A DNA stretch of 60,455 nt, the filler included, from Sphacelaria rigidula (taxonomy: Eukaryota): NCBI GenBank assembly GCA_964200075.2. It is 7 parts of 7 records of this genome, joined end to end, with 100 filler letters (N's around TTAATTAATTAA, not from the genome) between each part and the next. Parts side by side here need not be neighbours in the genome. Positions count along the whole stretch, not along the records: positions 34,608 to 43,157 come from CAXNAA020010809.1; 6 more parts are not named here. One strand, given 5' to 3'. The notes under the pieces are model-generated. The model searched no databases. It saw only the letters and a list, made by a program, of their open reading frames with translations, and was not told the DNA's origin. A program made the position numbers and the translations under genes. Every line of letters starts with the position of its first letter. Within the stretch, counting starts at the first letter, position 1. This document shows, piece after piece, positions 16,083-43,157 of this stretch.

Positions 16083-16173
16083 TAGCTTCTCCTGCTGTCC
16101 GAGATAAATTCCTTTTTGCCCTATTTGATAAATCGGGCAAAAAGGAATTTATCTCGGACAACAGGAGAAGCTA
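16083..16173. repeat. Near-perfect 91-nt hairpin (44-bp arms, 3-nt loop)
   Basis: tagcttctcctgctgtccgagataaattcctttttgccctattt-gat-aaatcgggcaaaaaggaatttatctcggacaacaggagaagcta, with 42 of 44 positions complementary. Confidence 0.9.
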
Positions 16174-17205
16174 TTCGAAATATATCAGCTATTCGAAATA
16201 TATCATTTCTTCAATTTATTGGGCAAAAAAAAGGATAAATTTTGAACAGCTTTTTTTGCTGCGCAAATCCCATGCACACTCGCAGATTTGAAATTTGAAC
16301 AACAGAAGAAGCTCTAAATAAATCTTCACTTTGCCCTCCATTTCATCCGGAGATTGGGGGAACAGAGACTTATTGCGAACAGCGTCAGCTGGGCATATCC
16401 CGCATACTGCACCGTTATCAGCATATGGGATCCGACAAGCAAAAAAAATGTTGAACATAATTCATCCTTTTGCCCCCCGATCCATGTACATGGGGTCGGA
16501 TGAATAATTCTCAACAGCTTTTGCCGAATGTAGATCCGGCACACTGATTACGATCGAGTGTATGTCCACACTCCTACGAGTTTAGATACTAAGCTTTCGC
16601 TCAAGACGTGAATAATAAGATCGTGGTGTATACCTCGCATATGACTCCACATTGCTTTTGAAAACCCCGTGGTGCGCAGTCTACCAAAATCACTCAACCG
16701 AGAATGCTTTTGTTCAGAGAGGTTTTTGTTTGATAGTTATTAGAAGCACAGAATAATCTCTCCGTACATGACAACCATGTGGCTCAATGGGCAACCTGAT
16801 GTAATGTACTCCAGAGCACCAAATCTTGAGTTCAATTATCACCCCTACCATTTCTCGACCGTTTTTTCTGCCAGTACCATGCCCATGCTGTATAGAGTAT
16901 ATTGTATGCGTGCTATAAAGGCTGCACAGCATATTAACAGCGATGAATTCCATACGGAGTGACGAAACCCTGTGAAGCGCCCTGTGTGGCACAAAATAAT
17001 TAATTAATTGATTGATTGATCATCTCATATTAGCTGATTGCAACAATCCAGCCCGTGGTCAGGAGCAGCAAAAATAGAACAGAATAATGATAATAATACA
17101 ATAAAGCAAGAAAGAGACAGAAAAACGACAGAAAACAACAAATTGTGAGAATTGAGGTTTAACTTCGAGATGAGGCTCAAGCCTAAAACAGTGCTTTCCC
17201 CACAC

Positions 17206-27208: not shown

Positions 27209-30200
27209 GTTAGTGTACGCACGTGAGCGCGGTATTGTAGCGCGGGGTACGCAGCGGTGACGCGACTGACTGTGTTTGCCGGCTTTGATCGTCTTCACGG
27301 AGTCTAGACGCTGGGTATCAGGGTGTGGAGAAGGAGAGTGCAAAATTGTGCGCGTGTATGTATGCATGCATGTATATACCGACGGTGTTTGCAGGCTTTG
27401 ATCGTTTTCATGGTGTCAAGACGCTGGGTATCAGGGTGTGGGGAATGAGGGTGCAAAATTGTGCGTGTGTATGTATGTATGTATATATTTGTGTATGTAT
27501 GCATGTATGTATGTATGTATGTACGTGCGTACGTAAGTGTGTGTGTCCTGATGTCTCCCTAGACCAATCGCATGCAAGTAATTCGGCCCAATTTGGCCAA
27601 TGATACCCCGAAGCACCATGATTCCGCTCTCATATCTGGCTGATTCGATAATTCCCTCGAATAGAGCGATATCACGAGTAATCACGCGTATGTATATGCC
27701 GATAGAGAAGTACCCCACAGTGAAGGAGAAAAAAACTGAAGTGATCATCTTGCTGCCCAGGCCTCTCCGTACAGCATCCTTCTTGTCGAAGCCATTCCAT
27801 TCGCTGCGCTGAATCCTACGCCACACATTGGTTCATGCAAGACCACGAGAAGGAGAGGGGTCGTCTGTGAACCTCGAACCGCTTCGGACCACATATTTCC
27901 ATAGACGTTTGCTTGTATGTTGATATTAGAGGTATCTCCATCACCATATCTCCTTCTGTCCACGTTTCGATGCCTTATGGACGCGCGACCACCTCTCACG
28001 CTGCCATACCTCACAGCGACTCTGGCGATAATGATCTCCGGGGATGAGCGACTCCGCGTGTCTCGTCTGCGTGAGATGTGATGATAGGAAATTTCTTGTC
28101 TGAAAGGACAACAGCAGTGTGTGTGTGTACATATACTTCCTCTGTCTCACAAGTCTGGGCGCTTGTGATTGTACGAGCCCTTAACGGTGTGATATTTGAT
28201 TTTCGATCTTTTTATTGCATTCGTCAACGTTTTTTTAGCCAACACTACCATTCTTTCAACAACGTGGGCGCTTGATCCATGCAGTCGAGCGGCCGAGAAA
28301 AAGTAGGCGGGTCAAAAAATGGCCATTTTTCGCTCGTTTTCCTAGGAAAGCATGAGAGACCCGGGAACACGAAAAATCGCGAAAAATGGACCAGAAAATG
28401 TGAAAATCGCGAAACCACCCTTGATTTTGGACATGTCCTGTGATGTTAACCTACGCACGCCCCATCCAACATTTTGTTAGCATGTAGTTGCTAGTGCTCG
28501 ACGTGAAAACGTTCGAAATCGGTCAATGGTGGGGTATAAATGGATCAAACAGGATCAAAATGGGGTATATTTTGCCATAATTTCAGTAACGAAAATAGCT
28601 TTTTGTTTTTCCGTTTTTTTCTCTTCCTCATCTTCGTCTTCGTTTTACCTCTCTAACAAACTCAACCATAGGATGATTGTTAACGTCGAAATATCCAAAC
28701 GATTAAACGCCCATAACTGCCCAAACTTATGAGACAGGAAGATACGTATGTATATATATATATATATATATGTCTGTGTGTAGTGGTTCCGCAATAGACA
28801 CGTGCATCTGATAATGCCGGTAATGTGAAGGACCTTTTTTTTTTGGGGGGGGGGGGGAGTTAGACCACTTCTTACGGGGGCCAAAAGTGCAAACCAATGA
28901 AAAGTGCGTATTTTGACCCTTTGGCAGCGTTTTTCGCGCGAATAGATGGCCAGGTAGGTAGGTTATGCCATCGCAGAGTCAAAAAAGGAATTCCAGCACA
29001 GTGCAGTTTGACGACTTTTGGTGCGTGCAGTTTGACTCTGGGTGAAAGCACGATGAAATATCCCGATTCGCGACAAACCGTGCAAGATATTCACTTTTGA
29101 TCGGTTTGTACAACAAGCCCACGATTTTTTGTTCCATCGCGTTTTTACCCGAAGAGAAGCTTCACACAACCATAGTCGACCAAAGTGTGCTGGAATCCTC
29201 GCAGATAGTACAACGAGTCATTCCGAGGTGACTAGATCCGCCCGGCTCAATCCTGTGTCATATATTCGCGCATGCAGACACGATGTCGAGCTCGTAAATG
29301 GATTCTCCTCTGCCGAACTATTCCAAATATCTTGTACTGATGGGCATGTCCATTTGCTGTAGATTCCGCATTTACAGTCCTGTTGCCACACGCAAGTGCG
29401 TCAAATCGTTTTTGGATATTCGGCATCCGGCAGTTGGTGTCATTTGCCAAGGCAATAGCTCTTGTGGCTGTCCCGTCTTTTATTGGGCTCCTGGAAGCCG
29501 TAACTAGGAAGACCGTCTGTTCAATTCAATACTTTGAACATGCACTGACGGTCTCGCAAGGTATTGAAGGATGTTTTTTGTAGGCACAAAGTAGACATGT
29601 GTGTTAACACGGTCAACACGGAACACGAGTTCCATATACGAAATATAATATTTGGTCAATGGCCGCACAGCAGCCTTTTGCCACAGCCGACGAAGACAAG
29701 TGACCGTTTTCCCCAGGAATGTTGATGCGATATGAGCTCAAATCTTCGTACGTGCATGGTGACATGTACTGCTGGGGCGGTAGCGATTACTGTTTCGCTC
29801 GACTACGAAGGTACTATGCAATTTGCTGCTCGTCACAGCTTACGCGGGATAAAGGTAGGGATGCGTGGCGAATGTATTGCGAATGTATTTCTGTGTAGGC
29901 GATCTCTGTCCGTCAAAACCTGTTCCGAATCCTACAGAAGATCTGTCCATTTGCCGTCCAAATAGGGGTCCGGACCGTAAGGGAATTTAGTGCATGTATG
30001 CCAATTTGTCACCCGGCATCCCCAAGAGCTACTCGATCGCGGAAGGGCTAGATGTAATATCGACTCTCGACATGTCTGTGCGCCGACGAACGACTGCGTG
30101 CGTCTCCTTCCACCAACAGGCTGCAACGCTCGTGTGCATTGCCGCGGCGATAGAGCTCATGTGCGAGCCGCTGGCGCTGATATTCCAGTACCAGCTTTTG

Positions 30201-34607: not shown

Positions 34608-34726
34608 GTCGGTTTTTGTGGCTAGGTGTGTCGACGCTGTGCTACCTCTTTGCGTCTTGTCCGCAGCAGTACAGAGATTTTGACCTAACGGCCACTTCCA
34701 GAACCGCCGCATGTTTTACCTCGCGC

Positions 34727-34804
34727 AGATCTGGGCTTCGATCTGAACAAAACTGCTTGTCGATAAGATCTGGGCTTCGATCTGAACAAAACTGCTTGTC
34801 GATA
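34727..34804 (+). repeat. Perfect 39-bp tandem duplication
   Basis: agatctgggcttcgatctgaacaaaactgcttgtcgata x2. Confidence 0.9.
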
Positions 34805-35059
34805 AGACGCAGCACTGGTCGTTGTGGGGGTAATCACTTCTCCAAATGTGATTTTTCGAAAAGTGACTTTGAGACCCCGCCTAAGCGCGCAGTTGTAATC
34901 CATACGGAGCGGAGCGGATATCCGTACACGGGAAAACTCACGGATTATGGCGGAGCGGATATCTACAAATGCCACGGAGCGGTGCGGTTTGACAAGCCGC
35001 ACCGTAATCATCCTCCTCGCAGCTTTATTCTTAATCCGTATAAATCCCTGGTACATAAT

Positions 35060-35120
35060 TGTCGATTGCCTTAGTCAGTTCATCATTGACCACGCACCCC
35101 TTTCGAGATGGAGCATCGTA
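35060..35120 (-). mobile_element. LINE family A 3' fragment
   Basis: Encodes [10 protein letters not shown]; matches the LINE tail. Confidence 0.65.
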
Positions 35121-36204
35121 TGCTACGGGGGGAAATGATGCGGCACCGCGCCGGCGCGCCCAATATCGGGTCTTCTCGGAGGGCAGAGCCGAAAGACACT
35201 GAGATTTTTTGGATTTTGGCCATCGGCAGGTTGGCACCGAGGGAGTTCCAGCAGCCACCGAACATTCGAGACATGAAGCTGATATATGGGCGGGTTTGCG
35301 GGGCTGGCACTGCCGCCGCATATGAATATATACTAGAATATCGACAGATCAGCACCTCACAGCGGGATTGACTGCGACCGATATCCGAATTTCGTGTCGT
35401 GTCTAGCGCCAATGTGAAGAATGTCGTGTGCGAGTTCTGCACTGAATAATTCGAGAGCACCATAGATTCACGTCTTTGGCGTGAGCGCATCAAATGTTTG
35501 GGCATCTCCGAAACGGTATGAAATTACGTTCTTGGTAGGACGCCGACCAATCAAGAAGATGAAGCAAGCGTGAAGAGAGGTGGGGTACTCGGTTATGCTC
35601 AAGAGACCGCGCTGAAACACAAATACACAGGCACACGTTTTTGGTTGAATTTCATGCGCGAATCGGGACGACGAGATGGATAACGGATAACTGATGACGG
35701 AGCGAAGCCCACGGCGGCATAGACGGCCGGGGAGAGATGCCTACGGAAGAGATAACTGGGGAAAATGAATAGTCTTTAGTAACCGGATGGGCAAACCTCA
35801 TCCTCTGAGGACTGCGCGGTATTTCCACGCTTTGTACTTCATGTGTGTTGATCAAGATGGGACTGCGCGTCCTTACACCCCTGTGCGATCACTTCATATT
35901 CATCAACATTTATCGCGTATCCTTGCCTCATGACCACAATACGTGCGATGACCCCGCCACCTGTGCGAAAGTCGGATCAGATCAGGTGATGTTATGTACT
36001 ATACTGCGTTCTCAACAAATGGTCCCACGTCACGCAGCATTTTGTCCAAGGTCGTCTCAATACACTTACAAAACTAGCTGCCGACGCACTGATGTTGGCA
36101 GCTCGTCCAGTGACTCGTTAAATCCTCCAGTTGATGTGGAGGTGGCGTCCGTGGTTTGGGCATTAGCTGTCGGAATGAACCTCATATTTTCTTTGCTCAA
36201 AGGG

Positions 36205-36223
36205 TGGTGTTGAGTAAACACCA
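36205..36223 (-). terminator. Histone mRNA 3' stem-loop (H2A)
   Basis: TGGTGTT-TACTC-AACACCA followed by CCC, about 82 nt after the stop. Identical to the element after H2B. Confidence 0.8.
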
Positions 36224-36305
36224 GGGGTTTGTTTTGGCCCCACCGTGCGGCGGACGCAGGAGGTCTGCCAGAGTCGAGACATCACATGATATTTCCAGGG
36301 GAAGC

Positions 36306-36683
36306 TCAGTCCTTTTTCACCACCTTCTTCGGCAGAAGGACAGCGTGGATGTTGGGCAGCACGCCGCCTGAAGCGATCGTCACCTCGCCGAGCAGCTTGT
36401 TCAGCTCCTCGTCGTTGCGCACAGCCAGCTGGATGTGGCGGGGCACGATACGGGCCTTCTTGTTGTCGCGAGCGGCATTGCCAGCCAGCTCCAGCACTTC
36501 AGCAGTCAGGTACTCCAGCACAGCCGCCAGGTACACCGGGGCACCGGCGCCCACACGAGACGCGTACTTGCCCTTCTTGAGGAAACGACCGATACGGCCG
36601 ACGGGGAACTGCAGGCCCGCCTTCGCCGACCTGGTCACCGACTTCTTGCCCTCACCGCGTCCGCCCTTTCCCTTGCCAGACAT
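36306..36683 (-). CDS. H2A: Histone H2A (canonical type, intronless)
   Basis: [66 protein letters not shown]. No C-terminal SQ motif. Confidence 0.99.
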
Positions 36684-37055
36684 GATTGATATTACTGATT
36701 GGTTTCAGAGGTGCTGAAGGTGTGTGTTGTGGCGGTAGATGCAAGTGTGAGCAGGAGGGGGAAGTCACAGGAGCAAAACAACAGTGCGATCGGTCTGTCT
36801 GTCTCAAATTCAAATTTGAAAAGGTTCGAGAACGCCTTTATTGCAACGGCTGTACAGTAACGTCACTGATTGACCCACGCAAACGTGAGGTGTGAACGGG
36901 AACATCAAACGAACACGCCTCCTCCACTACCAATTTTGAATTTTGAGCTCGACTGGCCATATACTTCGCACCTCAACCTCACCCAGCCCCCCTCCTCAAA
37001 CCCATCCATCCCACCGTACCCACTTTCGGACACCGTCTCATAACAAAGAGTAAAG
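36684..37055. promoter_or_regulatory. Bidirectional H2A/H2B promoter region
   Basis: 372-bp gap between divergent ATGs. TTTGAA-containing motifs at 36804-36820 and 36930-36946. Confidence 0.7.
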
Positions 37056-37406
37056 ATGGCCAAGACACCGTCGAAGAAGTCTGCTAAGGCCCCCAAGAAG
37101 GCCGGAGACAAGAAGAAAAAGGCCAAGAAGGTGGAGTCGTACTCGTCCTACATCTACAAGGTGTTGAAGCAGGTGCACCCGGACACGGGTATCTCCAAGC
37201 GCGGCATGTCTATCATGAACTCGTTCATCAACGACGTGTTCGAGCGCGTGGCGGGCGAGTCCGGCAAGCTGACCCGGTACAACAAGAAGTCGACGCTGTC
37301 CTCTCGCGAGGTGCAGACGGCCGTGCGTCTGATGCTCCCCGGAGAGTTGGCGAAGCACGCCGTGTCTGAGGGCACGAAGGCTGTTACCAAGTTCACGTCT
37401 TCCTAG
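37056..37406 (+). CDS. H2B: Histone H2B (intronless)
   Basis: [38 protein letters not shown]...[30 protein letters not shown]. Confidence 0.99.
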
Positions 37407-37510
37407 TTCCATCTGTAGTGAGTCTTGATTCGACTACCTCGAGAGCAACGGGAGACTTGCGGAGCAGTGGACACCGTGACGCACCTCCCCCAGCTCTCCT
37501 TGAACAACCT

Positions 37511-37529
37511 TGGTGTTTACTCAACACCA
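37511..37529 (+). terminator. Histone mRNA 3' stem-loop (H2B)
   Basis: TGGTGTT-TACTC-AACACCA followed by CCCA, about 104 nt after the stop. Confidence 0.8.
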
Positions 37530-37952
37530 CCCACGAGCAAAAAGAAAACGCGCCCCAACACAGTACCAGTCTGCCCCGAGGATGCGAAGATGGACTTGCG
37601 GCTGCCACAACTAGACGCCGTACAGGCGAGGTGAGATTCAAGCGAACGTTGTTTGGTGTGGGTGAACGGGTGTTCAGGGGATTCGCAGTTGCCGGTCCGT
37701 AGAAGGAGGGCATGAATAGTGTGAGGATGTCCTCCCCGAAACCATACTCGTGGTGCTGATTGTCCCTGATAATCCCACGGCATCATCTCCTCAGCCAGCG
37801 AGCGTGCAGGAATCAAAAACGGGGGAATTCGATTCGACCGCACGTTTTCGACATGAGAAGAGTTTGAGACTGCCTTGTTCTGGTGACGGTGTAAAAAATT
37901 TAATCTGTGACACAATTTCTAGCCGTTGCCGAATTCACCATCTATTCTAGAC

Positions 37953-38267
37953 ACCAGTCCACACCTTTCGGTATATGTGGGCACACCAGCCGGGGTCACA
38001 CGAGAGGGCCAATTCTCCATGAATAGTACTCCTACCCATATTTGCGATGTCCACCTTATTTTTTTCATCGCAGGGAGTTTAGCGATTCCTTCCCCTCGTC
38101 GCCCGGGAAATCGAATCTTGCGTACTCACACCCTCGCTTTCCACTACTGTTGCACTGCTTGTCATGGTGATGTGAAGATCCCGGATCGTGCAACCTCACC
38201 GAGATTCGACCCACTACCCAATTGTTAAGCCTCGAGTATTACCAGCGTGGCCACCGGGGCGATCGGC
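37953..38267 (-). mobile_element. tRNA-derived SINE (diverged)
   Basis: Head gccgatcgccccggtggcc on the minus strand; body matches 6123-6495. Confidence 0.7.
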
Positions 38268-38713
38268 TTTGCAACTTCGGATGAGTGAGGCTGTACTGTC
38301 GCGTGCGTTTGTCTTCCTGAAATGTTGAAATGCCCCCTGTGCGATTGCGCCGCGGAGGAGCTGGTTCGCAACGTGCGATCTGAACGACGGACGGTGCGTC
38401 AACATGCGGCTGTAGTACAGAAAGCTGCCATTTTTTTATGGGAAATTGACGAAAATAAGGCCTACGGTTGTTCCATCATCTCATGAATCAGAGTTGATTT
38501 TGATTTTTGAAGCTGATGTGATTTATGTCAACGATTACATCAGCACGTCGATGACTAACTGATTATCATCTCATCAACATGAATCAACTAAGTCGCAATA
38601 ACTTGGTGAGTCTTGATTAGTTACACCTCGCATGAGCACGGTACCCGCTATCGGCTATCGAGGTACCTCTCCCCACAAAAACCGGCGGGGCTTTCCTTCT
38701 TGCACAGCTGTTT

Positions 38714-39073
38714 TTGTGTGTGTCGTCCCATTTATTGTGGGCGCCAGTCTACCTCTTTCGGAATATGTGGGCGCATCAGCCGAGGGGTCACACAGGAGGA
38801 AGGTCAACACAAGAGCTTTTTCTTTTTTTCATATTTTTAGTACCCCCACCTTTTCTTTTGCGGTGCTTGCCTTTTATTTTTTATCGCGAGAGGGGTTTAG
38901 CAGTCCCTTTCCCTCGTCGACCATTGGGTCGAATTGTGTGTACCCACGACATGGTCGCTCTCCACTGTTGAGCATGATACAAGAAAAAATCCCAGATCGC
39001 TCCGGGAATCGAACCCCATCACTCAACCATCAAAAAGTTACGAGGCTACCAACTGAGCCACCGGGGCGACCGG
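38714..39073 (-). mobile_element. tRNA-derived SINE
   Basis: Minus-strand head ccggtcgccccggtggctcagttggtag...gggttcgattccc and a CA-rich tail. Confidence 0.8.
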
Positions 39074-39377
39074 TACTTCTGTTGTACAAATGGCATACGA
39101 TCGTAGTCGAATTCGTATACGAGGAGGTTGGGGTCCATCGAGCTGTGTGTTAGTGTAGACTTGTGTCTACTTATTGTGCCGGTCACGAGTGGTGTGGTGC
39201 CTCTTGATATTTTCCACACGCTGGATGATGACAATGAACCATCTGGTCAAAAAGTGAACTTCGTACAGTATTAACTCTTGCTTCCATGACCATAGACAAC
39301 AGATTCCATACTGTACGCATTACACTTTTTGACACTGTGATTTGTTGTCCAGGGTGTGATAGTTTGCAATCTGATTT

Positions 39378-39738
39378 GCCGGTCGCCCTGGTGGCACAGT
39401 TGGTAACCTCGAAACTTTCTGGCGGTTGGGTCGTGGGTTTGAATCTCGGAGCGATCTGCGATTTTTTCTCACACGATGCCCAACAGTGGAGAGCGACCAT
39501 GTCGTGGGTACATACAATTCGTCTTCATGGTCGACGAGGGAAAGTAACTGCTGAAGCCCTCTCGCCTTAGGAAGGAAGGCAAGCGCCGCAAAAGGGAGCT
39601 GGAGAATTGAAACAAACAGTAAAGGGAAAACTCCTGTGTTGGTTGGCCTCCTTCCTTTGTCACCCCGGCTGGTGCGCCCACATATACCGCAAGGTGTAGA
39701 CCGGCGCCCAGAGTAGATGGGACGACAACACACACACA
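39378..39738 (+). mobile_element. tRNA-derived SINE
   Basis: gccggtcgccctggtggcacagttggtaa...gggtttgaatctc, ending in (CA)n. Confidence 0.8.
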
Positions 39739-40432
39739 TTTCACAGTGCATCCAGTGCTGCGTGGGCAAAGCTACTGTAGTTGGAAGGTTGTCCTTAGTG
39801 CTTCTTCCCAGGAAAGCCATCATGTGCTCGGGAATTGGGGTGAAAACGTGACGACACGCCTACGCGCGTAACATCATATTCGGAAAAGCAATGCCCGAGA
39901 AAATCCACGTTGCAGCTGGCCAACTCCATTCTTTCGGTTCCTGCGTATCAACAGGTTCTCGGCACAAAATCTGACCTGTTTCCGCCCCGTTGCACCCATT
40001 GCAACACGCAAGGCCAGAAAGAATCAGCGATAACAAACTTGTTTATTGCGCTTCGAATGACATCTGGCCGAAGTTTCAGCGCCGTGTAGCTCCTTCAGCG
40101 CGTGTACGGCGGTATCTCTCAACATGGCACCTCTAGAGAAGATGCTGGTTACGCGTTTGTACAGATACCCATTTTCCAGAGGAAGCCCGGACTTGGTTTG
40201 TCAGTGATGCAGGCGTATAACTGCACACGACCGGACAGGTTCTGCACCAGCATGTTAACGTCCTCGTTCTTTCACTGTGTGTTAAGGTTGGGCTGTGGGA
40301 TTGCCGCGTTAAGGTCGTTTCGATGCTATACCAAATATCATAACGAGCAGATGAGCTGGGCCAGCCAACAGTTTTTTTCGTCGGTTTATACAGGTGATGT
40401 CCGGCTTTCTTTGAGGATTTAGTCGCAGAGGT

Positions 40433-40640
40433 TTTGACACGGCTTTTTCTCTCCTTTTCACGACACGCACAACATCTCTTGGGGTACCAAGAAGAGGAAA
40501 AGTAATGTTTTCAGCGAAAAGTGAGTGATGTGGGGCTTACTTTGGAGTCAGGCGCTATGATTTTGACACGAACTCTTTTTCAACGACACGCACAACGTTT
40601 CTGAGGATACGAAGAAGAGGGCAAAACACTGTTCGAGCGA
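40433..40640 (+). repeat. Diverged tandem duplication (period about 130 bp)
   Basis: ttttgacacg...cgacacgcacaac...aagaagagg occurs at about 40432 and 40562. Confidence 0.65.
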
Positions 40641-40783
40641 TTTGAATTTTTTAGCAAAAACTAGAAAAGTATGCCACCGCTGTTCCCAAGTGGTCTACCC
40701 GATACAGGAAACTGCAGGTATGGAGGTCACGAGTTCCAATCCCGGCATGACCTTTTTTGGTGCACGATCTGGTTTCGGCGTTG

Positions 40784-41065
40784 ACAATGTTTTCGTGAGA
40801 CAGAATAGAGGATACGATTGAGCGTGAAAAGCGGCCCATCAGTGAATGAAATGTTTCAGTTCCGAAATGCCCCTCCGCGAGGCCCAATACGCTTTCTGTA
40901 GTGGCTTGCCCCTGAGGCCCTTGATATACATCGGTGTGTAGCTGTAAGCACACACCAGTGATGGAGGCAAAGAAAAGCACACACGGAATGAAAAACCTGC
41001 CAAGTTGGAGCAAATGATCAAGTACATTCTCAATCAGCGCTCTACTCTCAATCTCACGAAAACTT
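40784..41065 (+). mobile_element. MITE, same family as 2442-2734 (a partial copy also at about 41360-41455)
   Basis: acaatgttttcgtgaga ... ctctactctcaatctcacgaaaac, with the shared internal sequence. Confidence 0.8.
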
Positions 41066-43083
41066 CGTTCTTTACAGAATGTTCTTGCTTCATCGGAAAC
41101 AGGTGATTTCGATACTTTGGCACGAGCTTCTGTCCCCCAAGGACGCGACGCTGGTCGTCTCGCTTGAGTGTGACTTAGGCTTCTCTCCAATAATACCTAT
41201 CTTGAACACTTCCCCGCTTCCCTGAACGCCCAGTTGCCCAAAATTACTGTCAGCACACGTTCTTTCTTTCCAATTATGAAAAGGACAGTCGCCATCGGGG
41301 ATTCGACCGAGGAACAGCGTCGCAGCCCAGTCCCTGTTGGATACTCGTACTTTCGAAAAATTTTCGTGAGATTGAGTCCACGACACGATTGGGAGTGAGA
41401 AGCCGTCAATTGATTCATGAAATAGCTTCAGTTCAGAACTGCCCCTCCGGGCCCTATACAGGCTGGTTCAGGGTGAACGCACAAAATTTGAAATTCGTTC
41501 CCCACTAGAGAAAGAACGCGAAACTGACCCCAACACGAAGCAGAAACATTTGATATCGTGGTCACCCCCACCAGCAAGCGAACAGAGTTACATGGTCACT
41601 TTTTCTTGCGTCCTTTGCCGTGGCGCTATTAGTGAAAGTGTTTCTAGGCCAATCAGCGACCTTCAAGTTGTTCTGAAATAAAAACGCGAATTTCTGACTC
41701 AATTTGTACCCAATCTCATCACAAATCAAACCTCAATGACTGCCATTTAGCTGAGAAATATAACTAAAAACGCAGCTTTGAGAATGTCTTGTATGGGATC
41801 GAGTTACACCCCGAAACGTAGTATTTTGGTGACGTGGGATGTTTGTTTCGTCGGGTGTTTACGTTTTCCCTTGTTACTTTGGTGCAAGAGCTCTGATCAT
41901 CCTCAAACTTGGCAGTCAGGTAGATATGGGTGCTACGACTTCAAAAACACGTTGAATATCACGACTTTTATCCGCTCTCTACCGGCTTCCGGGGGTCCCA
42001 TCGTGAAGACCCCCTTGAAGGTCAGTACAGATTGCTTTCAAATTCAAAATTTCGAATTCGACTCGTCCCGAGGTAATAATCCAAGGAACAATTTTCGTTG
42101 CGTGACTCGAAAAGCTGATTCCGAATGGTCGATCTAAGCTCAAGCGCACAAGGAAAATGTCGGTAGCGTACTATCATTAAGTATACACAGTTAGGGGTTG
42201 TTTCGCGTACATGTGTATACCTCAACGCACAAACCGCCGATAGCTCGCGCCGTTTTTTTTTAGCTAGACCCTGAAATTTTGCATACCGGTTCTCTGAAAT
42301 TTTTAGAAGGACTGAATGAATGCGGTGTTCCGATTTTGTTCGTTTTCCACCAGATATCCAGGGTCCCAGGAGGGGGGTTCAGATCACCCCTCCTGGAACC
42401 CCGGATACCTGGCAAGAAACGAACAAACGAAACACTCCATCTTCAAGAGGCAGGATTACACATCTGATATCGATAATCACTACAATTTCGATAAATATAG
42501 GCGATACGCAGTATCGATATCGATGCGTAGTAAACGATATTTGTCGTTACGTGTCAATGCCGAATTTCGATATTGACTATCGATACGCTCGATATATGGC
42601 CACGTTTTCATCACGTTAGCTCAATCTCTCGAACCCGTGGTCACAGGAACTGTAGGGGGGTGGTATTTTCCAAACGGCAGACCACCAGTTGTTTCAGCGC
42701 CACCCCCCGACACTCTACAAGTTCGCCTGTACACACCACACAACACGCAACCCACAGCACCGCTGCATTCCACTCAGCGTCAGCGCATTACTTGCTGCGA
42801 ACCACAACGGTGTGCAATATGAGCCTTCAGACTTTCGGCTTTGTCTCCGGCCGTGAATGCCCAGCTGGTGCCTCGTGGGTTTGGCGATTTGATTCATCGG
42901 GGGTGTTTAACAACGGCTACCTACGGGTGGCGTGGCGGAGTAGATCTGGGGTCACGATCACTGCAAAGCTGCAAATAAAAGTAGAAAAACAGCTGTCCTT
43001 CGGAGTATGAGGAGATGGTAGTGTCGCTTCGCCGTTCCTCCATGTTTCACGAGTGGTGAATTTCTTTCCCCCCCCCCATCCAT

Positions 43084-43157
43084 CCTGCCAGAAAGGAGGA
43101 AAAGATATAACAGTCGTCGTCTGGAGGAGGAAGTAGATCGACAGAATTGCCTCTGTG
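43084..43157 (+). mobile_element. 5'-truncated LINE family A copy, cut by the contig end
   Basis: ggaggaggaagtagat...agaattgcc matches about 10290-10320. Begins just after a C10 tract (43068-43077). Confidence 0.65.

Follow-up and report, generated by a model that had tools for sequence, protein, structure and literature searches.

A divergent histone stem-loop followed by a position-fixed purine-rich block behind the H2A and H2B genes of the brown alga Sphacelaria rigidula: a candidate two-part signal for histone mRNA 3'-end processing

How do the histone mRNAs of a brown alga obtain their 3' ends? The question is raised by a stretch of 60,455 nucleotides (nt) of DNA from Sphacelaria rigidula (assembly GCA_964200075.2), which was analysed as a whole and is called the window in the following; it consists of 7 parts of 7 records joined end to end, and the locus discussed here lies in the part that was taken from CAXNAA020010809.1 (positions 34,608 to 43,157). 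In this part a gene for histone H2A and a gene for histone H2B are both followed by the same hairpin and, a few nucleotides further on, by a similar purine-rich block. Histone stem-loops outside animals are already known, and whether histone processing that depends on U7, a small nuclear RNA (snRNA), occurs outside animals is a long-standing question. We propose, at a probability of roughly 0.55 and from comparison of sequences, that the two hairpins and their blocks represent a two-part, animal-type signal for the processing of histone pre-mRNA 3' ends. The features on which the argument is built are the following (positions in the window):

36306-36683, minus strand: H2A gene, intronless, 125 amino acids (aa); uninterrupted open reading frame (ORF) with matches to PF16211 (67.3 bits) and PF00125 (59.3 bits)
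37056-37406, plus strand: H2B gene, intronless, 116 aa; uninterrupted ORF with a match to PF00125 (66.5 bits)
36206-36222, minus strand: H2A 3' stem-loop GGUGUU / UACUC / AACACC, beginning 83 nt past the stop codon; possible seventh pair, U-A, at 36223/36205
37512-37528, plus strand: H2B 3' stem-loop GGUGUU / UACUC / AACACC, beginning 105 nt past the stop codon; possible seventh pair, U-A, at 37511/37529
36202-36205, minus strand: H2A 3' flank ACCC (next base U), directly after the stem
37529-37533, plus strand: H2B 3' flank ACCCA, the same as the animal consensus flank
36187-36198, minus strand: H2A purine-rich block GAGCAAAGAAAA, 6 nt past the 7-bp stem; core AAAGA at 36194-36190, +11 after the stem
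37535-37548, plus strand: H2B purine-rich block GAGCAAAAAGAAAA, 5 nt past the 7-bp stem; core AAAGA at 37541-37545, +12 after the stem

The original prediction for this DNA had placed one and the same 22-mer behind two intronless histone genes of a brown alga, within 3' untranslated regions (UTRs) that are otherwise dissimilar, and this description proved accurate. The uninterrupted ORFs and their Pfam matches bear out the lack of introns, and the brown algal origin is corroborated by the H2B protein: a Sphacelaria rigidula protein matches it at 100% identity, one from Laminaria digitata at 97% and one from Ascophyllum nodosum at 95%, and after these come, among named relatives, proteins of xanthophytes, oomycetes, diatoms and bolidophytes (~86-92%). 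When up to 3 mismatches are allowed, the window contains exactly two copies of the 22-mer, TGGTGTTTACTCAACACCACCC, at 36202-36223 on the minus strand and at 37511-37532 on the plus strand, i.e. on the sense strand 83 nt (H2A) and 105 nt (H2B) past the stop codon, and none of 100 dinucleotide shuffles of the window contained a match. Local alignment of the H2A flank to the H2B flank gave a score of 9 for the segments between stop codon and hairpin (shuffles 8.4 ± 1.7; 205 of 500 as high) and of 10 for the 150 nt past the block (shuffles 9.3; 192 of 500 as high), both of which are at the level of shuffled sequence; the score was 30 when hairpin and block were included (shuffles 9.5 ± 1.6; 0 of 500 as high). 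The copies being identical over 22 nt, they might in principle be a chance match or the functionless relic of a recent duplication or gene conversion, as recent conversion would give just such identity. Against this speak the absence of any match in the shuffles and the limitation of the likeness to hairpin and block, and further evidence on the point comes from the relatives of the two genes.

We therefore turned to 80 metagenome loci that code for relatives of the H2B protein (66-88% identity). In the window H2A and H2B, both intronless, are divergently transcribed, and the same divergent layout was found in many of these loci. The set of flanks comprised 114 H2A and H2B 3' flanks with a minimum length of 60 nt, of which the window contributed 2. 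A perfect 6-bp GG..CC hairpin with a loop of 4-6 nt was present in 78 of the 114 flanks, as compared to 0.9 on average and never more than 3 in 200 shuffles, and AC followed directly after 58 of these 78 hairpins versus 2 on the opposite strand. The stem itself varies across lineages (GGAUUU/AAAUCC, GGUGUU/AACACC, GGUGAA/UUCACC, GGAAUU/AAUUCC, GGCUCU/AGAGCC and others) by differences that are compensatory. In an alignment of 95 hairpins double changes were recorded for 4 of the 6 stem pairs (151 cells), which was reached by none of 500 shuffles, and controls in which the alignment was slid gave lower values. The G-C pair at stem position 2 is invariant in all 95 aligned hairpins, including both window copies. 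RNAalifold predicted the same helix from the alignment and nothing else, and left the downstream block unpaired.

The stem of the window copies had been described as one of 7 bp, closed by a loop of 5 nt. Both copies indeed fold in this way at minimum free energy (MFE), with loop UACUC, but conservation does not extend to the seventh pair: the flanking U-A was found in only 31 of the 95 hairpins and without covariation, and the conserved unit is thus the canonical 6-bp stem with ACC behind it, the 7-bp stem having been rejected as such. Judged by folding energy alone, neither copy stands out (pieces of 61 nt, z = -1.75 and -0.15). A pairing at long range between block and 5' flank was also rejected, as it appears weakly in the MFE fold of H2B only and is absent from that of H2A and from the consensus fold.

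Do the window hairpins belong to the histone stem-loop family (Histone3, RF00032)? They lie on the sense strand past a histone stop codon, their stem has 6 bp with G-C at positions 1 and 2 and covaries, and their 3' flank is as in animals (ACCCA for H2B, ACCCU for H2A); their loop is not the one of 4 nt with U at positions 1 and 3, they do not reach the gathering score of RF00032, and the As of the 5' flank are not beside the stem. The likeness to the metazoan stem-loop (the element that SLBP and 3'hExo bind) extends to the location in the 3' UTR of core histone genes that lack introns, the 6-bp stem with two opening G-C pairs and a closing U-A pair, the U as first base of the loop, the flank ACCC(A) and the covariation of the stem pairs. 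The differences are in the loop, which in the window has 5 nt (UACUC, equal to the UCUC of the relatives with an inserted A) rather than 4, in the stem, which is GGUGUU and mixed in purines and pyrimidines rather than GGCYCU, in the 5' flank, which in the window is C/U-rich beside the stem with As further upstream, and in the distance to the stop codon, which is 83-105 nt as compared to the 25-60 nt that are quoted for animals in the accessible text of a preprint (10.64898/2026.10.14.759114).

The gap between the animal element and the window copies is bridged by intermediates. A search with Rfam of 12 loci from relatives (68,474 bases) yielded 20 matches at E-values up to 1, all 20 of them to RF00032; with 36.1 and 34.7 bits, two diatom-like hairpins exceeded the gathering score, and the canonical-type locus L058 reached 39.0, 36.7 and 33.5 bits. 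A covariance model built from 93 hairpins of relatives, with the window left out (model R2), was then run over the 60,455 bases, on both strands and with filters off. It recovered two matches in the window, the H2A hairpin (36.1 bits, E 3e-9, 36180-36230) and the H2B hairpin (31.5 bits, E 1e-7, 37504-37554), and the next-best match scored 9.4 bits. Since diatom-like hairpins pass RF00032 and the model from the relatives finds the window copies, the latter are, as judged by sequence, divergent but genuine histone 3' stem-loops. A chance match or a relic of conversion has thereby become extremely improbable: a model to which the window contributed nothing picks out just these two sites, and the same architecture, with covarying stems, is present in dozens of independent lineages.

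Some further results concern the distribution of the hairpins. The exact 21-mer of the hairpin had 0 matches in the viral contigs and in the genome contigs of the database that was searched. A search of viral contigs with H2B recovered 9 giant-virus-like loci, which were left out of the comparison. Another 59 H2B loci were found in the genome contigs (at most 82% identity over most of the protein, and 90% for one fragment of 40 residues); these were used as layout controls only, carry mostly canonical animal-type hairpins, and include no locus that is brown-alga-like. Many of the assemblies labelled as bacterial or archaeal metagenome-assembled genomes (L090-L146) hold tandem histone repeats with canonical animal-type stem-loops, and their histone contigs look like contigs of eukaryotic hosts that were mis-binned.

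The 5-nt loop had been taken as a sign that the specificity of the SLBP has diverged, and this part of the original prediction was weakened. Both Rfam and R2 read UACUC as U-[a]-CUC, i.e. as UCUC, the common loop, into which a single A is inserted. Loops of 5 or 6 nt are present in 8 of 46 lineage clusters, all on GGUG stems (a further 5-nt loop, UAUUC, is found in L147), and the identical GGUGUU stem carries 4-nt loops in other lineages. The sole base-specific contact of SLBP in the solved complex is, according to the accessible text of PMC10388802, the G at stem position 2. As this is the G that is invariant in the 95 hairpins and as the loop varies on one and the same stem, the loop alone does not imply a changed specificity. 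The 5' flanks of the window hairpins (AACAAACCCCU / GAACAACCUU) are C/U-rich beside the stem and have As further upstream, the consensus of the relatives being AAAAAACn; a 5' flank that is unlike the animal consensus makes some divergence of the SLBP protein possible. A short SLBP-like motif had 0 matches in the six frames of 149 sources (715,218 bases).

What, then, is the nature of the block? Purine-rich blocks had been predicted 5-6 nt behind the stem, and they are indeed present there (H2B 37535-37548, H2A 36198-36187). In the 83 flanks that bear a hairpin AAAGA starts at +9 after the last stem base in 3 flanks, at +11 in 14 and at +12 in 12, and 26 of the 83 have it at +11 or +12, which is the register of both window copies; at any other offset between -60 and +79 (outside +9 to +12) it was found in at most 2 flanks. 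Purine content peaks in the same place (0.67 in the bin from +10 to +14 versus ~0.4 around it). The identity between H2A and H2B flanks of the same genome, determined for 23 H2A/H2B pairs from 21 non-canonical loci, is 0.86 at positions 0-3 (the ACCC), 0.40 at 4-8 and 0.61 at 9-16, and amounts to 0.28-0.29 further on (0.34 far upstream). Identity is thus back at background (0.28 beyond +17) as soon as the block has been passed, which suggests that the functional unit ends there. In addition, an exact common word of at least 6 nt was present between +4 and +25 in 16 of 24 loci, as compared to 2, 1 and 4 of 24 in control windows.

The block is not restricted to H2A and H2B. On diatom-like contigs, where H2B is 89-97% identical to a Ditylum protein, hairpins were also recovered behind H3/H4 (L010, L017, L037, L039) and behind H1 (L021, L036, L037, L039; the H1 assignment is accompanied by a PF00538 match for L036), and these are mostly followed by CAAAG[AG], with CAGAGA (H3 of L010) and CAAAGC (H4 of L017) as the exceptions. 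The H1 features are located as follows:

L036:1668-2087, L021:3744-3793, L037:2876-2925 and L039:3535-3584, minus strand: H1 genes/hairpins in diatom-like contigs, hairpin then CAAAG[AG]

The H1 hairpins lie ~275 nt (L036, L037 and L039) or 193 nt (L021) past the end of the open frame, which suggests that towards their 3' end these H1 genes have an intron or change frame.

Other stramenopile-like lineages have a different block in the same position, YGGAAU in the H2A/H2B 3' flanks of L018, L032, L034, L035 and L038, and a sequence rich in GAAAG/GGAAG in L025, L027, L030 and L031, and the canonical animal-type hairpins from the same searches have a purine core (e.g. AAAGAG) at about +12 to +15. 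In sequence as well as in register the block is conserved, among the histone classes of one genome and between the brown alga and diatom-like lineages. The original prediction had proposed it as a possible equivalent of the histone downstream element (HDE) of animals and had named covariation of the stem and a fixed spacing of the block as signs to look for. Covariation (4 of 6 pairs) and fixed spacing (AAAGA at +9 to +12) were both found across the metagenome relatives, conservation was seen there for H2A, H2B, H3, H4 and H1, and the proposal is supported to the extent that the block keeps a fixed position and has its core in common with diatom-like and other relatives.

The resemblance to the animal system of HDE and U7 (U7 in a small nuclear ribonucleoprotein (snRNP) with LSM10/LSM11, FLASH and CPSF73) is as follows: in both a short and constant spacing separates the hairpin from an unpaired purine-rich block 3' of it, which is common to different histone classes, and the core AAAGA is similar to that of the canonical-type loci. 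The core is however slightly nearer to the stem (+10 to +12; in the canonical-type loci about +12 to +15), the blocks of one genome differ less from each other, and no U7 RNA is known or was found here as a pairing partner. Animal downstream elements are usually less uniform within a genome than these blocks, and the ACCC flank is the position of cleavage in animal histone pre-mRNAs.

By analogy to animals, the favoured two-part signal would operate as follows. The stem-loop, with its 6-bp GG..CC stem, a loop that is one base longer and the flank ACCC(A), would be bound by SLBP. The single-stranded, purine-rich GAGCAAA(AA)GAAAA, with its core CAAAGA starting 10-12 nt after the stem, would act as HDE and would position the cleavage machinery, such that cleavage takes place after the hairpin and ahead of the block, and an mRNA results that ends in the hairpin. 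The block would preferably be read by a U7-like small RNA with 5' end UCUUUG, together with the homologues of LSM10/LSM11 that are reported for Ectocarpus. The binding of SLBP, the cleavage at ACCC(A), a 3' end that lacks poly(A) and the kind of factor that reads the block are what we infer.

A number of points weigh against this reading. The taxon labels of the metagenome loci are based on the identity of H2B to a few named proteins only. The rows of the alignment were chosen for perfect hairpins, by which a pairing of 100% is built in (the pair types, the count of 78 in 114 flanks and the model searches are free of this selection bias). RF00032 itself gives 15.9 bits (E 1.2) for the H2A hairpin at a gathering score of 34, and the H2B hairpin was not listed at E-values up to 10. 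AAAGA at +9 to +13 is found in 15 of the 46 lineage clusters (11 diatom-like, 1 canonical-type, 2 with GGUGUU stem and 5-nt loop, and the window), while the remaining clusters have a differing block or none that is obvious, and the common core of only 5-6 nt is short for a guide duplex. The U7 family (RF00066) had no match in the window at E-values up to 5, none over 35500-38300 at E-values up to 10 and none in the 12 loci from relatives at E-values up to 1; a U7-like candidate was likewise not found in the window or in the ~0.7 Mb of fetched loci, which is a very small search space. The ends of contigs and A-tails, inspected as proxies for transcript ends, contained nothing informative. Finally, in the histone transcripts of Physarum a stem-loop and a purine-rich element occur together with a poly(A) signal, and these transcripts are present in poly(A)+ RNA (PMC8600027, in its accessible text), a precedent by which the hairpin does not prove an end that is not polyadenylated.

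To our knowledge LSM10 and LSM11 are known only as proteins of the U7 snRNP, and we know of no experiment by which U7 was shown outside animals. It is the fixed position of a block that is lineage-specific in sequence, together with LSM10/LSM11 in Ectocarpus, that leads us to prefer a U7-like reader; a block that varies by lineage in a fixed position is the pattern expected from a co-evolving guide RNA or reader. More specifically, ochrophytes (brown algae, diatoms and others) might have a U7-like snRNA with a 5' end of about UCUUUG, UUUUCUUUGCUC in this alga, that pairs with the CAAAGA block, a suggestion that we put forward tentatively and with the odds somewhat against it. Two sets of candidates for such an RNA were rejected. 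A descriptor that combines UCUUU[GU], an Sm-like site and a hairpin gave 42 weak matches in AT-rich contigs, none of them convincing, and 0 in the window. Four near-matches in the window to the 11-mer that is complementary to the block are without an Sm-like site; this anti-block 11-mer has 5 matches in the window versus 1.6 expected, and 6 of 100 shuffles had as many.

The alternative is a true stem-loop with a functional block that is read without any guide RNA, by a protein (CPSF/CstF-like or lineage-specific), or that serves as an element for pausing or termination. A protein would suit the shortness of the core and the greater uniformity of the block within a genome, as compared to animal elements, and it would agree with the lack of a U7-like RNA in the sequence that was searched. 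The literature, as represented by the accessible text of the sources, is on this side where it calls the U7 class restricted to metazoans (PMC5054213) and where it has SLBP and LSm10/11 present in Physarum but U7 not identified (PMC8600027). The same alternative is at odds with the variation of the block by lineage at a kept position (CAAAGA, YGGAAU, GAAAG-rich), which is as with a guide RNA, with the resemblance of the core to the animal AAAGA(G) of the canonical-type loci, and with the homologues of LSM10/LSM11 that are reported for stramenopiles, including Ectocarpus, albeit in a preprint only (10.64898/2026.10.14.759114). The accessible text of that preprint has LSM10/11 as widespread, yet predicts a U7-like RNA only in Rozella. 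On balance we consider a reader other than a guide RNA unlikely.

It might also be that the mRNAs are polyadenylated further downstream, and that hairpin and block form an element of the 3' UTR that acts in stability, translation or cell-cycle control via SLBP. The diatom H2B proteins in the database derive from MMETSP transcriptomes, whose libraries we take to be poly(A)-selected, and this would agree with such a role, as would the situation in Physarum, the position of the window hairpins at 83 and 105 nt past the stop codon rather than at the distance quoted for animals, and the stem-loops that have been reported in stramenopiles, which lie further downstream and show reduced conservation (10.64898/2026.10.14.759114, accessible text). 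Six hexamers (AATAAA, ATTAAA, AGTAAA, TATAAA, AATATA and AATGAA) are however absent from the 700 nt past either stop codon, although the poly(A) signal of brown algae may differ from these, and conservation is at background right after the block. Polyadenylation downstream appears improbable to us, and processing at the two-part signal is the reading with which we proceed.

Relative to what has been described before, the general architecture of hairpin and block is the same as that of the stem-loop with purine element outside animals (Physarum, PMC8600027; Chlamydomonas/Volvox, cited in PMC5054213; accessible text in both cases). For brown algae or diatoms we found no description of a histone stem-loop or HDE in the literature that was searched (Davila Lopez and Samuelsson 2008 and the supplements of the preprint may have entries), and the paper on the histones of Ectocarpus (PMC7784034) has no occurrence of 'stem-loop' or 'polyadenyl'. 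The scan of the preprint (10.64898/2026.10.14.759114), as far as its accessible text goes, required a 6-bp stem with a 4-nt loop, and by its own account misses loops of 3 or 5 nt; as downstream element it accepted 'AAA' or 'AAGA' anywhere downstream. A position-fixed CAAAGA core that is common to brown alga and diatom-like lineages is not in that text, and its supplements may list such hairpins.

The remainder of the window contributed the following. A six-frame motif scan of its 60,455 bases recovered no histone gene beyond H2A and H2B. The region between the two genes is:

36684-37055, no strand: divergent promoter region common to H2A and H2B, containing an inverted repeat at 36806-36818 / 36931-36943

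The arms of this repeat, AAATTCAAATTTG / CAATTTTGAATTT, are 92% complementary, by which both histone genes, seen from their ATG, have one ~13-nt motif in common, located 113-135 nt upstream; the motif is a candidate for a common histone promoter element. Away from the histone genes we observed a near-perfect hairpin or palindrome at 16084-16176 (arms of ~37 bp), with weak matches to microRNA (miRNA) families on both strands that are well below gathering scores; it might represent the terminal repeat of a transposon or else an RNA that forms a hairpin. A (TGTA)n/(GT)n microsatellite at 27460-27540 was the source of spurious matches to miRNAs and small nucleolar RNAs. Between 8554 and 51906 there are twelve runs of 44 Ns, paired and about every 8,650 bases, which look like masking and not like biology.

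The consequences are partly practical. Surveys that require a 4-nt loop miss real histone stem-loops of stramenopiles, and a vaguely defined 'purine-rich region' is replaced by a precise target, a core of 5-6 nt in a fixed register that is found in the brown alga and in diatom-like lineages and that differs elsewhere. This core predicts the 5' sequence of a putative guide RNA for each lineage and provides a test by covariation; if a U7-like snRNA does exist in ochrophytes, the blocks of the various lineages (CAAAGA, YGGAAU, GAAAG-rich) would give the sequence of its anti-element in each of them. The findings also hint that a two-part signal for cutting, as known from animals, long predates the animals themselves, and U7-guided, poly(A)-independent histone 3' ends would, if such an snRNA is present in ochrophytes, be ancestral to eukaryotes and not an invention of the animals.

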